Source: a virus
Reading direction: 5' to 3' (one strand)
DNA length: 34,852 nucleotides
Virus record (IMG/VR): IMGVR_UViG_3300026985_000012
Location: 1 to 34,852 of that record
Shown here in pieces: positions 1,046 to 34,852 of the stretch (the stretch's first letter is position 1; each line of letters begins with the position of its first letter). The notes under the pieces are model-generated. The model did not search any database. It saw nothing but the letters and a program-made list of their open reading frames with translations, and was not told the origin of the DNA. The translations under genes and the position numbers were made by a program.

Positions 1046-1528
1046 ATGTCCACTACTCAACAGTCACTCGACGAGTTCGCGAGCCGTCGCGAGGTCATCC
1101 CCGGCCGCGTCTTCGAGCGCTACCTCTGGACCAACCCCGAAGTCTGCTCGGAGTGTTTTGCCCGGGTCCGCACCGAACACGAACTCACCGTTGACGACTG
1201 GGGGAACACTGTCTCCGAGCTCAACCGGTCGGGCTCGGGTATCCAAGGATACGACAACGTCAACGGCGGCGGGGTGTACCTCCCGCGAACGTTCTGCGAG
1301 GAGTGTGGTGGTCGGGGGCGTGCCGACCCCGATCCTGACTCGAAGCTGCAGGCGACGCGCCGGGGCTCGCGCATCGGCGATCGCCTCGAGGAGCAGGATA
1401 TCGCCGTCGACCGACCGGCACTCCGCCGAGCAGTTCGGACGCTCAAGTCCAAGCCCGAGCTCGTCGGTCTTGACAAGGAGATCTACGAGCGCGCCACGAA
1501 GATCGCCGTCCGGAGGGCGCAGCGATGA
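1046..1528 (+). CDS. Zinc-binding protein with N-terminal PIP-box-like motif
   Basis: CSEC and CEEC pairs; QQSLDEF near the N-terminus; start chosen at ATG 1046 (GTG 902 is the alternative). Confidence 0.75.
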   Translation: MSTTQQSLDEFASRREVIPGRVFERYLWTNPEVCSECFARVRTEHELTVDDWGNTVSELNRSGSGIQGYDNVNGGGVYLPRTFCEECGGRGRADPDPDSKLQATRRGSRIGDRLEEQDIAVDRPALRRAVRTLKSKPELVGLDKEIYERATKIAVRRAQR

Positions 1529-1704
1529 GCCTCTCGCAGTACGGGCGCGTCGAGTTCCCGTTCGGTGATCGACACCTCATCGGCGACGCCGTCGACTTCG
1601 AACCCGCCGGTGATGTCTCCGGACCCGACGGCCTCCTGGTCGTCGACGTCGAGGGGCTCACCTACCGCGTCGAGGAGTCACGAGTCGAGCGGTTGGACCA
1701 GTAG
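1525..1704 (+). CDS. Hypothetical protein (59 aa), stop codon inside the tRNA
   Basis: Below the ORF-track cutoff; ATGA overlap with upstream gene; MSLSQYGRVEFPFGDRHLIGDAVDFEPAGDVSGPDGLLVVDVEGLTYRVEESRVERLDQ; TAG at 1702-1704. Confidence 0.7.
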   Translation: MSLSQYGRVEFPFGDRHLIGDAVDFEPAGDVSGPDGLLVVDVEGLTYRVEESRVERLDQ

Positions 1705-1768
1705 CTCAGTCTGGGAGAGCACGACGCTGAAGCCGTCGCGTGCCGCGGTTCGAATCCGCGCTGGTCCA
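1695..1768 (+). tRNA. trnF: tRNA-Phe (GAA), CCA not encoded
   Basis: Complete cloverleaf: acceptor GGACCAG/CTGGTCC + A73, D-stem GCTC/GAGC with GG, anticodon stem CGACG/CGTCG, loop CT-GAA-GC (anticodon 1729-1731), T-arm CGCGG-TTCGAAT-CCGCG. Confidence 0.95.
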
Positions 1769-1930
1769 TGTCCCGTGGGGCGCGCCTTCTCCGGAAGGCC
1801 AGGTCACCCCCACGGGAGTGCTGAGGCACACGAGCGGCCGGCGAGCCTCTCGCACTGACGCCGGTCTATCACGAGCGGAGGGCGTTCCATGTTCGGTTGT
1901 AGTTACGCAAACCCTCAAGTCCGGTCGCCT

Positions 1931-2032
1931 TGCGACGCCACAGGTGTGGTCACGGACGGCTCTATGGGCTCGGGCGAAACCAAAGCCTGAGACGGGCCTC
2001 CCCCGTGCGGGGTTCGATACCCCGCGTCGCCT
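1931..2032 (+). ncRNA. tRNA-like structured RNA with an elongated anticodon-position arm
   Basis: T-arm CGGGG-TTCGATA-CCCCG (2008-2024); acceptor-like GCGACG/CGTCGC (1932-1937/2025-2030); D-like hairpin CCAC-AGGT-GTGG; long arm 1951-2007. Confidence 0.5.
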
Positions 2033-5100: not shown

Positions 5101-6998
5101 GTTCTGACACCACCGACGACGCTGGCGACCAAGTCACGTTGTCCGTCGAGACGCTGGGGAACAAGTCGGCGATGACCAAGGCGGAGGAGACGACGCAGCT
5201 GGACGAGCGTCGCATCGCGACGGACGTCGGTCGCGGGATCGTCCCGCCGTACGACCCGGGCGTCCTCGCGTCGTTCCAGGAGATCAACGAGACGCACCAG
5301 GCGTGCGTCCGCAAGAAGGCGCGCTACGAGGTCGGCTACGGCTTCGACATCGTCCCGCACCCGAGCGCCGACGAGCCGGACAAGGACGAGGACAGCGAGT
5401 ACTCAGCCGCTCGAGACTTCTGGTACGGGTCAGACAGTCGGTGGCAGATCGGCCCCGAGGGGACGGCGACGTCGACGCCCGAAGAGGTGCTCGAACTCGC
5501 CCGGCAGGACTACCACGGGATCGGATGGGCCAGCCTCGAGATCCTCGTCGAGGGCGACGGCACGCCGGTCGGGCTCGCCCATGTGCCGTCGGCGACGACG
5601 CGCGTCCGGAAGACGACCACGGAGACCGAAAACGGCGAAGAGGTCATCAAGAGCGGTCACGGCTACGTCCAGATCCGCCAGGGGCGCCGGCGGTACTTCG
5701 GCGAGGCCGGCGATCGGTACGGCGACGACCCGACGTTCGTCGATAAGGAGACGGGCCAGGTCGAGAGTTCCGCCGACGAGCTCCCGAACGGGCCAGCGAA
5801 CGAGCTCATCTTCATGCCGAACCCGTCGCCGCTGTCGCTCTACTACGGCATCCCCGACTGGGTCGCCGCGATGCAGACGATGGGCGCCGACCAGTCCGCC
5901 AAGGAGTGGAACCACGACATCTTCGAGAACCTCGGCATCCCGTACTACGCGATCAAGGTGACCGGCGGCACGCTCACTGAGGACTCCAAGGACGAGCTGC
6001 GGGAGCTGATGGACAACCTGAAGGGGTCGCGGTATCGGACGGCCATCCTCGAGGTGGAGGACTTCGAGTTCGAGGAGGACAACCCGCTCCAGGACGGCGA
6101 CCCCTCGGACGTCGAGATCACGCTGGAGCCGATCGGCTCGCGGGAGGACCTCGACATGGAGTTCGAGCAGTTCCGCGAGCGCGCCGAGCACGAGATCGCC
6201 AAGGTCCACGAGGTGCCGCCGATCCTCATCAACGTGACGTCGACGTCGAACCGGTCGAACTCCGAGGCGCAGGTGCAGGAGTTCGCGAACGACGTGATCG
6301 CGCCGGAGCAGGCGAAGTTCGAGGCGCGGCTCTACAAGATCCTCCACCAGACGGCGCTCGGCGTCGACGACTGGACGATCGACTTCGAGCTCCGCGGCGG
6401 GGACAACCGGAAAGAGGAGGCGCAGCTGGCCGAGCAGCGTGTCCGGGCGATGCGGCTCGCCGGCGTCGGCACCGTCAACGAGGCCCGCGAAGAGCTCGGG
6501 CTGGAGCCGCATGAGGACGACGAGATCGGCCAGATGACGCTCCAAGAGTTCGAGTCGTTCTACTCGGACACCGGCGGGGGCGGCGAAGGAGACGGCGAGA
6601 CCGAGGCCGCACGCCCGATCGGTGCGCCGCCGAAGGAGAAGCAACTCGGGACACGCGACTGGGCGACCGTCGAGTCGTCGCTCGCGACGAAGGACGCGAT
6701 CGAGACGACGCAGTTCTCGAGCTCGAACCTCGACGAGGGACTGTACGACATCGAGGCCCAGGAGCTGTACCTCTCGTTCCAGCGTGAGAATGGGGAGTCC
6801 TCGCTGTACGTCTACGTCAACGTCCCGAACTCGGTGTGGGCGTCACTGAACAGCGCGGGCTCGGTGGGATCGTACCACTACGAGAACATCCGTCTCGAGT
6901 ACCCGTACCTAGAGGTGACGAACTTCCACGATCGCCTCCCCGAGGGCCCGGCGCCCGATTCGGAGGACGTCCCCGACGACATCCCGGACGACATCTGA
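5097..6998 (+). CDS. Portal protein with C-terminal KTSC domain
   Basis: Follows terL; PBSX/HK97-portal-like motifs (YYGIPDW, IAKVHEVPP, NRSNSEAQ, TVNEAREELGLEP); KTSC-like SSNL..GLYD...L.L.F......YVYVNVP...SAGSVGSY..ENIR..Y at 6711-6917. Confidence 0.9.
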   Translation: MSSDTTDDAGDQVTLSVETLGNKSAMTKAEETTQLDERRIATDVGRGIVPPYDPGVLASFQEINETHQACVRKKARYEVGYGFDIVPHPSADEPDKDEDSEYSAARDFWYGSDSRWQIGPEGTATSTPEEVLELARQDYHGIGWASLEILVEGDGTPVGLAHVPSATTRVRKTTTETENGEEVIKSGHGYVQIRQGRRRYFGEAGDRYGDDPTFVDKETGQVESSADELPNGPANELIFMPNPSPLSLYYGIPDWVAAMQTMGADQSAKEWNHDIFENLGIPYYAIKVTGGTLTEDSKDELRELMDNLKGSRYRTAILEVEDFEFEEDNPLQDGDPSDVEITLEPIGSREDLDMEFEQFRERAEHEIAKVHEVPPILINVTSTSNRSNSEAQVQEFANDVIAPEQAKFEARLYKILHQTALGVDDWTIDFELRGGDNRKEEAQLAEQRVRAMRLAGVGTVNEAREELGLEPHEDDEIGQMTLQEFESFYSDTGGGGEGDGETEAARPIGAPPKEKQLGTRDWATVESSLATKDAIETTQFSSSNLDEGLYDIEAQELYLSFQRENGESSLYVYVNVPNSVWASLNSAGSVGSYHYENIRLEYPYLEVTNFHDRLPEGPAPDSEDVPDDIPDDI

Positions 6999-28744: not shown

Positions 28745-29296
28745 ATGACCATGAGTACGTTAGACAACCGGGGTCAAAAATCCGGCCCCAACGATGAGCG
28801 GACCGAATCCAAGTACGTCCGTCGAGAGATGAGCTCGTCCGCAGTCCCGTATATGCGGACTGAAGTCAACAACTACGGCCACGTCGTGTGGCGCCAGAAG
28901 ACATCGAATCAGGAGAATATTTCTGTTCCTGTCCACCGGCTACTACTCGTCGCTGAATACGGCGTTGATGCCGTCGTCGGGAAACACGTCCACCACAAGA
29001 ACGAGATTCCATTCGACAACCGTATCGAGAATTTAGAGCTACTCGATCCCGAGGAGCACAGCCGACACCACAGCGAAGGATCCGACATCAGCGATGTTGA
29101 GCTCCTCGCCGATTTGCGAGCTGGTGCTGCTGTTCTCGACCGGCGTCCGAAGAAGTGTGACGTCAACAACTGGGGGAGCTACCACAGTTCGACTTACTAT
29201 AGACGGTTCGACGGCGACTGGGATGAGATCTGCTCACTGGCAGGTATCGACGAGGGCGGAAACATCGACGGCGACTGGTGGAGGGAGCAGGAATGA
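28745..29296 (+). CDS. HNH endonuclease with C-terminal homing-endonuclease-associated repeat
   Basis: VHRLLL...HVHHKNEIPFDNRIENLELL...EH..HH; C-terminal ELLADL....L.R.P......WGSYHSSTYYRRF..W...C..AG. Confidence 0.85.
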   Translation: MTMSTLDNRGQKSGPNDERTESKYVRREMSSSAVPYMRTEVNNYGHVVWRQKTSNQENISVPVHRLLLVAEYGVDAVVGKHVHHKNEIPFDNRIENLELLDPEEHSRHHSEGSDISDVELLADLRAGAAVLDRRPKKCDVNNWGSYHSSTYYRRFDGDWDEICSLAGIDEGGNIDGDWWREQE

Positions 29297-33592: not shown

Positions 33593-34852
33593 TCAGTCCA
33601 ACAGCAGCTGGCTGAGGATCGGGTCATCACGGAGCCGGTCGCGAGCGGCGATGACGTCCTCGGCCTCGACGTCCAGGTCGTCGCGCGCAGCGGCGACGGC
33701 GTCCTCGACCATCTCGTCGTCGAGCTCGTCGACGCGCTTCGCCGTCTCGGCGTCGAGGGCCGTCCCGCACCACATGCAGAGGTCGTTATCGGCGGGCGTC
33801 TCCCGGTCACACCGGTGGCAGACGATGGGGGCGCGGACTTCGTCGTCTTCCTCGAGGTCGACGTCGATCCCGTGCATGGCCGCGAACTTCGCCTCCTGCG
33901 TCTCCCCAGAGAACTTGGCGACGTAGCGGGAGATGACAGGCGACCCACGGGCGCGGCCCTGTCGGTCCTCGATGAACGCCTGGGACTTCTCCTGCTGGGA
34001 GAGCCAGTAGGCGTTCGACTTCCGGAAGTTGGTCGGCGTCACGGGCAGATCGACGTCGGCTCGCCCAGCCGCCTCCTTGAAGATCTTCAAGAAGAGCTGG
34101 TAGCTGACGCGCTTCGGCTTGTTGAGGTGGCTCCAGACGAAGTCGTCGCCCTCGCCGGGGTGGCTGGCCTGCCAGCGCGAGACCCACGGGATCGACCGGA
34201 TGAGGTGGACGTCGTGTTCGCCACGCTTCCCGTCGACGCGGACTTTGACGGAGTGCTCCGAGTCGGAGATCTGGTCGAGCGTGAGGTCGTAGAGCTCACC
34301 GCCACGGAACCCACCCTCGAACTGCAGGGCGATGAGCGCCTTGTCGCGGTCGTTGTGACAGGCGTCGATCATCGGCCGGACGTGCGTGTCCCAGTCGAGC
34401 ATGTCGGCCTCGTCGGGCTCGGGCTGGTAGTCACGCGTCGTCTGCGTGGAGATCCAGTCGTGCGTGTCGGGGATCTCCTCGCCGCGGGTGGTGTGTTTGG
34501 CGAGCATCCGGAAGGCGACGCGATAGTCCCGGTTGGTCTCCTGGCTCCCCTCCTCGATGTCGTAGGTGTCGTGGATCCAGCGGACGATGACCTTCGCGGC
34601 GTCTTTGGCGGCGTCGAAGTCCTCGTCGTCGCGCTCGGGGAGGATGGTCTCGACGAGCGCAGTGTCAGCGTGCTCGCTGGCTCGCGTGTTGTGCCGGAGG
34701 AGCTTCTCGTGTCGGTGCCAGCCGTACTCTTCGCGACGGAGCTTCAGCTCGTCGGAGAACGCGAGCAGGAGGTCACGATCGGCGTCACTCCCACCGCGAT
34801 CGCCGGCCTGGAGCTTCTCGCGGAGCGTGTCGACGGCGTCCTTCCCAGCCAT
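33593..34852 (-). CDS. int: Tyrosine integrase with C-terminal zinc ribbon
   Basis: GGFRGGEL (R), DGKRG (K), TPTNFRKS (R), SRYV (Y); CHRC...CMWC ribbon. Confidence 0.93.
   Translation of the reverse strand: MAGKDAVDTLREKLQAGDRGGSDADRDLLLAFSDELKLRREEYGWHRHEKLLRHNTRASEHADTALVETILPERDDEDFDAAKDAAKVIVRWIHDTYDIEEGSQETNRDYRVAFRMLAKHTTRGEEIPDTHDWISTQTTRDYQPEPDEADMLDWDTHVRPMIDACHNDRDKALIALQFEGGFRGGELYDLTLDQISDSEHSVKVRVDGKRGEHDVHLIRSIPWVSRWQASHPGEGDDFVWSHLNKPKRVSYQLFLKIFKEAAGRADVDLPVTPTNFRKSNAYWLSQQEKSQAFIEDRQGRARGSPVISRYVAKFSGETQEAKFAAMHGIDVDLEEDDEVRAPIVCHRCDRETPADNDLCMWCGTALDAETAKRVDELDDEMVEDAVAAARDDLDVEAEDVIAARDRLRDDPILSQLLLD

Follow-up and report, generated by a model that had tools for sequence, protein, structure and literature searches.

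A conserved tRNA-shaped RNA with a 57-nt arm in BJ1-like Halorubrum viruses and its probable place in a tRNA-bracketed non-coding RNA cassette

Introduction

In the mascRNA system, a single cut by RNase P gives the upstream RNA its 3' end, which a structure then shields, and sets a small tRNA-like RNA free. The tRNA-like domains of tmRNA and of bacterial YrlA (Y RNA-like) mimic the acceptor and T arm, have a reduced D region and carry a long helix at the anticodon position. Plant RNA viruses carry 3' tRNA-like structures. In haloarchaea, the tRNA-like structure upstream of the Haloferax volcanii 5S rRNA and related elements are termed t-elements; they have been used to flank an engineered CRISPR RNA (crRNA), and RNA placed between two t-elements was released with defined ends in Haloferax in vivo (PMC4326828). 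In temperate haloviruses, tRNA-like phage attachment (attP) sites are common, and the element HrrHF2_450 of HF2 was interpreted as what is left of an attP site, with a match to the 3' part of a host tRNA (PMC8707807). Herein, a tRNA-like structure (TLS) is described at positions 1932-2031 of the IMG/VR provirus record IMGVR_UViG_3300026985_000012, whose whole stretch of 34,852 nucleotides (34.9 kb) is called the window. The TLS is a real, strongly conserved tRNA-shaped RNA of BJ1-like viruses of Halorubrum, a salt-loving archaeon. We consider it probable, with moderate confidence, that it forms the 3' module of a non-coding RNA (ncRNA) cassette bracketed by tRNA shapes in BJ1-like (Graaviviridae) Halorubrum siphoviruses and proviruses, and that the host tRNA end-processing enzymes cut it.

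Structure of the TLS

An earlier note, made from the window sequence, had described a tRNA mimic in which a canonical T arm and an acceptor-like stem go together with a D-like loop bearing GG and a long arm at the anticodon position. The acceptor, the D-like hairpin, the three arm helices, the 9-nt loop and the T arm were all found where the note had placed them, and every helix covaries. The junction and its tRNA-like parts are listed below. Pairing is given as the share of alignment cells that pair, and counts are over 34 distinct homologues.

1932-2031 (+): TLS, tRNA-like structure, 100-nt four-way junction RNA; 114.3 bits with the covariance model, and covariation
1932-1937 with 2025-2030 (+): acceptor-like stem, 6 bp, GCGACG/CGTCGC; 100% paired, 3 of 6 pairs compensatory
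1938-1949 (+): D-like hairpin CCAC-AGGT-GTGG, 4-bp stem and tetraloop; 100% paired, 2 of 4 pairs compensatory
1951-2007 (+): 57-nt arm with helices h1, h2 and h3, an internal loop and a terminal loop
2008-2024 (+): T arm CGGGG-TTCGATA-CCCCG, 5-bp stem and canonical 7-nt T loop; 100% paired, 3 of 5 pairs compensatory
2025-2031 (+): acceptor 3' strand and discriminator C2031; CCA is not encoded

The T arm is that of a canonical tRNA. It has a 5-bp stem and a UUCRANN loop, it is continuous with the acceptor 3' strand, and it stacks on the acceptor. The discriminator is C in 26 homologues, G in 4 and T in 3. The canonical D arm is not present, as the TLS has neither the 8-11-nt D loop nor nucleotides 8-9 nor a variable loop. 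The D-like loop has only 4-5 nt and reads AGGT in the window and UGGN in relatives; one of its G residues is invariant and the other is kept in at least 90% of the sequences. No linker follows the acceptor, and T1950 is the only unpaired base in the junction. Similarly, the canonical anticodon arm (5-bp stem, 7-nt loop, U33) is replaced by the three-helix arm.

The window sequence alone gives weak support for this fold, and the relatives decide. The fold z-score of the window sequence is -2.2, and the drawn structure has a free energy of -46.4 kcal/mol versus -51.2 kcal/mol for the minimum free energy (MFE) structure, which is a different fold. When the window was scanned with the covariance model, 1932-2031 was the only such match.

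Covariation and distribution

Homologues were collected from BJ1 and Humcor1, from a pattern scan of viral contigs, from a scan of genome contigs, from a genome scan with a covariance model built from the first alignment, and from a metagenome scan. The pattern scan returned 16 true TLS homologues on IMG/VR contigs, and the genome-contig scan returned eight, all in Halorubrum species. With the covariance model, the TLS was found in 12 of 74 Halorubrum genomes, as a single copy in each; of 151 genomes sampled from the class at large, two carried it. The metagenome scan added 21 contigs from hypersaline sources. The 34 distinct homologues come from Halorubrum viruses, proviruses and hypersaline metagenomes, and their TLS lengths range from 97 to 103 nt.

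Covariation was measured in two alignments. In the MAFFT alignment of 17 sequences, 97.0% of the cells are paired versus 38-44% with slid partners, and both sides have changed in 15 of the 32 pairs. RNAalifold by itself recovered all helices from these 17 sequences except the outer pairs of h3. In the alignment of the 34 distinct sequences, which was fitted to the structure model and is thus biased towards it (the MAFFT alignment is free of that bias), 96.7% of the cells are paired versus 37-44% when slid, and compensatory changes occur in 17 of the 32 pairs. These are spread over all six helices, which is the outcome of the check among homologues that the earlier note had suggested.

The paired bases also tell the strand. 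G-U pairs are frequent on the plus strand, for example at pair 39-61 (GU in 17 sequences) and pair 41-59 (GU in 16). This indicates that the constraint acts on the plus-strand RNA and not on the DNA. The plus strand is also the strand of the tRNA-Phe gene and of the flanking genes. The TLS is under purifying selection and is not decaying.

The 57-nt arm

The arm consists of three helices separated by unpaired bases.

1951-1955 with 2003-2007 (+): h1, CACGG/CCGTG; 98% paired, 3 compensatory pairs
1958-1962 with 1994-1998 (+): h2, GGCTC/GGGCC; 99% paired, 3 compensatory pairs
1963-1968 and 1992-1993 (+): internal loop TATGGG//AC; 5 of 8 bases invariant
1969-1975 with 1985-1991 (+): h3, CTCGGGC/GCCTGAG; several register and sequence variants among homologues
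1976-1984 (+): terminal loop of 9 nt, GAAACCAAA; 6 of 9 bases invariant

The most conserved part of the TLS is formed by the unpaired bases of the arm. The UAU and GG of the internal loop, the opposing AC and six of the nine terminal-loop bases are invariant, and the h3 helix beside them takes such different forms as CTCGGGC/GCCTGAG, GGAG-T-GGC/GCC-CTCT and GGTAGGC/GCCTACT. This near-invariance suggests that a released TLS would probably bind a specific partner as well, and as a pattern of sequence conservation it argues for a further function of the arm beyond processing. A copy of the arm hairpin was searched for in five Halorubrum genomes, and the exact match was found only within the provirus.

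An all-against-all scan of alignment columns revealed no convincing additional helix that would represent a tertiary pairing. The pairing of AACC in the arm loop with GGTT in the T arm has only 4 bp and was treated as chance. The single-sequence MFE structure draws a different "variable-arm" hairpin, ACGGG/CCCGT, which was rejected as the conserved fold. It is 89% pairable with zero compensatory changes, and one of its pairs is broken in 15 of the 34 sequences; it stays pairable because G pairs with C and U alike. It may still occur as a minor conformer.

The cassette upstream of the TLS

The TLS is the last of four consecutive elements, whose order is a 59-aa open reading frame (ORF), tRNA-Phe (or another tRNA or mini-tRNA), a structured segment named X, and the TLS.

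1525-1704 (+): 59-aa ORF, BJ1 ORF42-like, phrog_37636; from the ORF list, PHROG match 1.5e-31
1694-1769 (+): viral tRNA-Phe(GAA), the 5' bracket of the cassette; ARAGORN, and Rfam tRNA at 62.2 bits
1769-1931 (+): X RNA, a structured non-coding segment of about 160 nt between tRNA-Phe and TLS; alignments
1771-1817 (+): hairpin P1 of X; RNAalifold and the MFE fold of the window
1796-1806 (+): single-stranded AGGCCAGGTCA within P1; conserved in most loci
1832-1842 (+): 5' strand of the long-range helix P-LR, GAGCGGCCGGC; pairs with 1919-1931
1908-1913 (+): single-stranded CAAACC motif; present in 21 of 23 distinct loci in the alignments
1919-1931 (+): 3' strand of P-LR, GTCCGGTCGCCTT, which is the 5' leader of the TLS and includes the upstream GTCGCCTT; covariation

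In most loci the tRNA-Phe lies 160-260 nt upstream of the TLS. In six relatives its place before X is taken by a 47-nt mini-tRNA that has no anticodon arm. The coordinates of these are given by locus.

L005:1856-1902, L016:1705-1751, L039:3251-3297 and L134:244-290: mini-tRNA
L011:9061-9107 (-) and L095:1775-1821 (-): mini-tRNA, minus strand of the contig

The mini-tRNA folds into a 6-bp acceptor, a GGGG-UAGG-CCCC hairpin, a 3-nt linker and a T arm. Among the six sequences this fold is conserved, with 97.9% of the cells paired and four compensatory pairs, all in the T stem. In another locus (L006), a tRNA-Trp(CCA) lies between the tRNA-Phe and X, the two at 6259-6333 (-) and 6468-6541 (-), and X follows directly after the tRNA-Trp. 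The slot thus accepts a tRNA-Trp or an anticodon-less mini-tRNA, which indicates that the tRNA shape is selected there and not the decoding of Phe.

The placement of X is strict. In every locus it starts 0-2 nt past the discriminator or 3' end of the upstream tRNA or tRNA-like element, and its last base directly precedes the TLS, as is the case for the flanks of t-elements. X is conserved in the alignments, and its indels among loci are not multiples of three. Its layout is P1, a linker, P-LR around a variable insert, and the CAAACC motif. P1 has an outer stem (1771-1780 with 1808-1817) and an inner hairpin (1785-1798); in L007 and L018, AGGCCAGGTCA is absent and a short unrelated hairpin is present instead. 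P-LR has 11 bp with 99.4% of the cells paired and three compensatory pairs, versus 18-52% in slid controls. Relaxed Rfam searches of the window region and seven homologous loci revealed no family in X that is common to the loci.

The CAAACC of X echoes the GAAACC of the TLS arm loop. In the window (1908-1919 versus 1973-1987), the X pattern GGC..[insert]..CAAACC-N-CAAG closes P-LR, and the TLS arm reads GGC-GAAACCAAA-GCC. The echo could represent two sites for one factor, or a duplication.

The 59-aa ORF encodes an acidic protein, and its stop codon lies within the tRNA-Phe gene. It is linked to the cassette, as the TLS was found about 230-250 nt downstream in all nine loci retrieved via the protein. 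Its AlphaFold2 model is a small SH3/Sm-like beta barrel with a predicted local distance difference test (pLDDT) score of 79.7, and the fold search returned generic SH3-like, Tudor, chromo, Hfq and YaeO matches, all weak with E about 0.1. The protein might bind the RNA; the Tudor and Hfq matches are to be taken as a lead and not as evidence.

Proposed processing by host tRNA end-processing enzymes

The TLS retains features that the tRNA end-processing enzymes would read, namely the acceptor/T-arm coaxial stack, the T loop and the D-like loop with the GG that would form the elbow. The t-element layout, the slot that tolerates any tRNA shape and the lack of a conserved promoter together lead us to propose that a longer transcript is cut by host tRNase Z and RNase P. 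TAGTTA at 1900 is the one AT-rich hexamer within range and is not conserved, and no convincing conserved promoter was found before the cassette.

The following steps are envisaged. The cassette would be transcribed within a long viral transcript. Host tRNase Z would cut 3' of the tRNA-Phe and 3' of the TLS, and host RNase P would cut at U1931/G1932. The products would be the tRNA-Phe, the X RNA, a TLS RNA of about 100 nt that is probably CCA-tailed, and the downstream mRNA. The X RNA would be closed off by a helix on each side, by P1 at its 5' end and by P-LR at its 3' end. The released TLS would probably bind a specific partner through its arm. Structure, conservation, linkage and strand are what was observed here; cleavage, CCA addition and any partner are what we infer. 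The earlier note had named three roles, a processing signal, a decoy for host anticodon nucleases and a decayed intron-containing tRNA, and among these the processing signal is the best fit to the context.

Several points weigh against this account. The thermodynamic MFE of the window is another fold, lower by 4.8 kcal/mol. The acceptor stem has 6 bp versus 7. The junction lacks nucleotides at tRNA positions 8-9 as well as a variable loop, and with so few linker bases a true L-shape and a D/T elbow are not assured. P-LR abuts the acceptor stem and pairs the leader up to position -1, which makes the access of RNase P uncertain, and an uncleaved X-TLS RNA would fit equally well. The processing explanation is also incomplete, as a pure processing signal needs no conserved arm and the mini-tRNAs have none.

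Alternative explanations

The arm could be explained if the released TLS were a decoy or adaptor for a tRNA-recognising factor, with the invariant loops as the binding site. The candidates include a host anticodon nuclease or another defence directed at tRNA, an enzyme of tRNA modification, the CCA-adding enzyme and the linked 59-aa viral protein. This idea would add to the processing model and not replace it, and we hold it tentatively. In its favor, the unpaired arm bases are near-invariant though a processing signal needs none, the mini-tRNAs of the same cassette manage without any arm, and the linkage of the small beta-barrel ORF to the cassette is strict. Against it, none of the host RNAs in the five Halorubrum genomes carries the same hairpin, and the ORF fold is generic with weak matches. 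For the specific role of an anticodon-nuclease decoy, as first proposed, the observations argue neither way.

A stronger form of the idea is just as tentative. Here the TLS would act on its own as a viral RNA of tRNA shape with a CCA tail, and its invariant arm would recruit or trap one specific factor of the host or the virus; the ORF-tRNA-X-TLS unit would be a dedicated module for both RNA expression and RNA effector function. Candidate targets of the arm include a defence nuclease that attacks tRNA, an enzyme that modifies or processes tRNA, and the linked 59-aa Sm/SH3-like protein.

A serious rival, though we think it unlikely, is that X is never cut from the TLS and the two form a single RNA of about 265 nt. 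Only the 5' end (by tRNase Z after the tRNA-Phe) and the 3' end (by tRNase Z, possibly with CCA) would then be processed. The TLS would serve as a tRNA-like domain at the 3' terminus that lends the RNA stability or brings in factors, on the model of the plant viral structures, with P-LR stacked coaxially on the acceptor. The covariation of P-LR and its end at -1, right against acceptor G+1, fit this arrangement, as do the AAACC motif common to X and the TLS loop and the finding that X and the TLS never separate in the loci examined. However, the U at -1/-2 and the weak terminal pairs (G-U, A-U) would allow the leader to open, and t-elements with structured flanks are cut in Haloferax (PMC4326828).

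A conformational switch, in which GCGACG pairs alternately with an upstream or a downstream GTCGC, is very improbable, and for the family as a whole the homologues contradict it. The earlier note had proposed it from the repeat GTCGCCTT. The repeat is indeed present at 1924-1931 and 2026-2033, which gives the window both partners, and the single-sequence MFE uses the upstream hairpin; however, no other locus has this repeat (1 of 23 loci). The leader GTCGC pairs fully with GCGAC in 2 of 23 loci, and the acceptor stem is paired at all six positions in 23 of 23. Changes in the acceptor 5' strand are compensated by the 3' strand and not by the leader, and the leader covaries with 1832-1842.

The reading as a decoding tRNA gene with an intron is scarcely credible. 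It would be an amber suppressor (CUA) or a tRNA-Arg(CCU), with the distal hairpin removed by the splicing endonuclease. CTCTA at 1960-1964 of the window does allow the reading C32-U33-CUA, as well as the drawing of an imperfect bulge-helix-bulge. However, both internal loops have unpaired bases on either strand (2+4 nt and 6+2 nt) and they lie 5 bp apart, which does not give the canonical 3-4-3 bulge-helix-bulge, and no splice register yields a 5-bp stem with a 7-nt loop. The would-be U33/anticodon columns 30 and 31 are h2 positions that covary (C19/G11/T4 and C28/T5/G1), so that the imagined anticodon differs between relatives, and conserved bases fall in the supposed intron. Under purifying selection, a decayed form of such a gene fares no better.

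The tRNA finders agree with this. ARAGORN made no call at 1932-2031 at default thresholds or with the intron option, and the call of a tRNA-Leu(gag), obtained only at lowered thresholds, is implausible and disagrees with the covariation. The Rfam tRNA family RF00005 gave no match on 1932-2031 even at E up to 10. The sole match within the tRNA clan was tRNA-Sec (RF01852), at 21.8 bits in the window and 21.8-26.1 bits across the loci, for a threshold of 47.

Least probable of all, and close to negligible, is a role of the DNA itself, as an attP core for integration into a host tRNA gene or as a packaging (pac) or origin site: such tRNA-like attP sites are common in temperate haloviruses (PMC8707807) and the virus encodes a tyrosine integrase, but free Humcor1 and the Hrr. 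coriense provirus are fully identical and collinear along 3.3 kb that include the TLS and 1.5 kb to either side of it, which indicates that recombination does not occur there, the BJ1 integrase lies 5.7 kb from the TLS, the compensatory changes include many G-U pairs that are meaningful only in plus-strand RNA, and the 5' half of the TLS covaries with its 3' half, which is not required of an attP core.

Virus context and neighbouring genes

The window carries the genes of a caudovirus, including the small and large terminase, a portal-KTSC fusion and a tyrosine integrase at the right end. The region 1600-2036 has 72-76% identity to Halorubrum virus BJ1 and to the Halorubrum coriense provirus Humcor1, both of the Graaviviridae. 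The tRNA-Phe(GAA) was the sole gene called on the window by ARAGORN and by Rfam at gathering thresholds. Pfam searches of the small ORFs near the cassette gave no match.

33593-34852 (-): tyrosine integrase ORF; Pfam Phage_integrase, 54 bits
5097-6998: portal protein with a KTSC domain at the C-terminus
28745-29296: separate ORF with HNH_3 and HNH-repeat domains

The integrase ORF starts at the very last base of the record, which indicates that the cut that set the provirus boundary fell at or within the integration module. The record is without the MCM/replication block that lies between the integrase and the cassette in BJ1. The HNH_3 ORF suggests a homing-endonuclease-like gene in the lysogeny/early region.

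In BJ1-type loci (L001:1948-1990, with equivalents in L020, L006, L012, L055, L058 and L097), a spacer of about 40 nt separates the TLS from an ORF43-like exonuclease gene. The spacer is conserved up to the ATG as TTCGAGACGCA..TGACA..CCCCTCCGTTTCCACTCCAG-ATG and is without a TATA-like box, as would suit an mRNA 5' end made by processing better than a promoter.

Significance and comparison with known systems

No Rfam family reaches its threshold on the TLS. The papers on BJ1, Humcor1 and Hlac-Pro1 either describe only the tRNA-Phe or do not mention the TLS. To our knowledge, very few structured ncRNAs of archaeal viruses are known, and we know of no ORF-tRNA-X-TLS type of effector module described for them. 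We class the TLS as a putative viral tRNA-like processing module that gained a conserved arm, probably functional, and brackets a structured RNA. Its comparative signal is unusually clear and its architecture is defined and testable. If the proposed processing is true, an archaeal virus family uses host RNase P and tRNase Z to carve an ncRNA and mRNAs from one transcript, which would be a natural counterpart of the engineered Haloferax t-element system and of MALAT1/mascRNA processing in animals. Through its conservation, the arm suggests an interaction at the interface of tRNA, virus and host. Culturable systems exist in BJ1 and in the inducible Humcor1 provirus of Halorubrum coriense. An Rfam entry for the TLS family would prevent its misreading as a broken, intron-bearing or suppressor tRNA.

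Three known systems resemble the TLS in part. Like the halovirus tRNA genes and tRNA-like attP genes, it is a tRNA-derived halovirus sequence that tRNA finders score poorly. Unlike the HF2 element, it lies within the provirus, does not serve as the crossover site and covaries at the RNA level over its full length. With archaeal intron-containing pre-tRNAs it shares a long extra hairpin at the anticodon position with bulges on both strands; it differs in having no 3-4-3 bulge-helix-bulge, no conserved U33/anticodon and no plausible spliced product. The tmRNA and YrlA domains differ in that the TLS arm closes in a 9-nt loop and has neither an mRNA-like domain nor the Ro-binding stem architecture. 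At the E-values searched, the TLS gave no match to Rfam tmRNA, and an upstream mini-tRNA region (L016 1665-1744) scored 27.1 bits against a threshold of 47.

There is also a likeness to mascRNA of MALAT1 and MEN-beta (RF01684). In both cases a tRNA-like structure lies at the 3' end of a longer ncRNA, the 3' end of X would be shielded by P-LR, and mascRNA and tRNA-Sec are the two closest Rfam matches of the TLS. The RF01684 scores are 19.1-29.2 bits for the TLS (19.1 in the window) and 34.5 bits for the L095 mini-tRNA, all below the threshold of 42.5. The mascRNA system is eukaryotic and without homology, and it uses a triple helix in place of the long-range helix, so that the resemblance is in mechanism only.

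The 5S t-element is not known to have an arm of the TLS kind. The TLS is viral and carries a conserved three-helix arm of 57 nt in place of the anticodon, and we infer its cleavage. The mini-tRNAs of the six loci, which are without an anticodon arm, would be a closer structural match to the haloarchaeal t-element than the TLS. In both systems, a tRNA shape in a haloarchaeal transcript stands directly against the RNA whose end it would define, and RNase P and tRNase Z are the enzymes expected to cut. The cassette layout of tRNA or mini-tRNA, X and TLS is that of the synthetic construct of t-element, crRNA and t-element.

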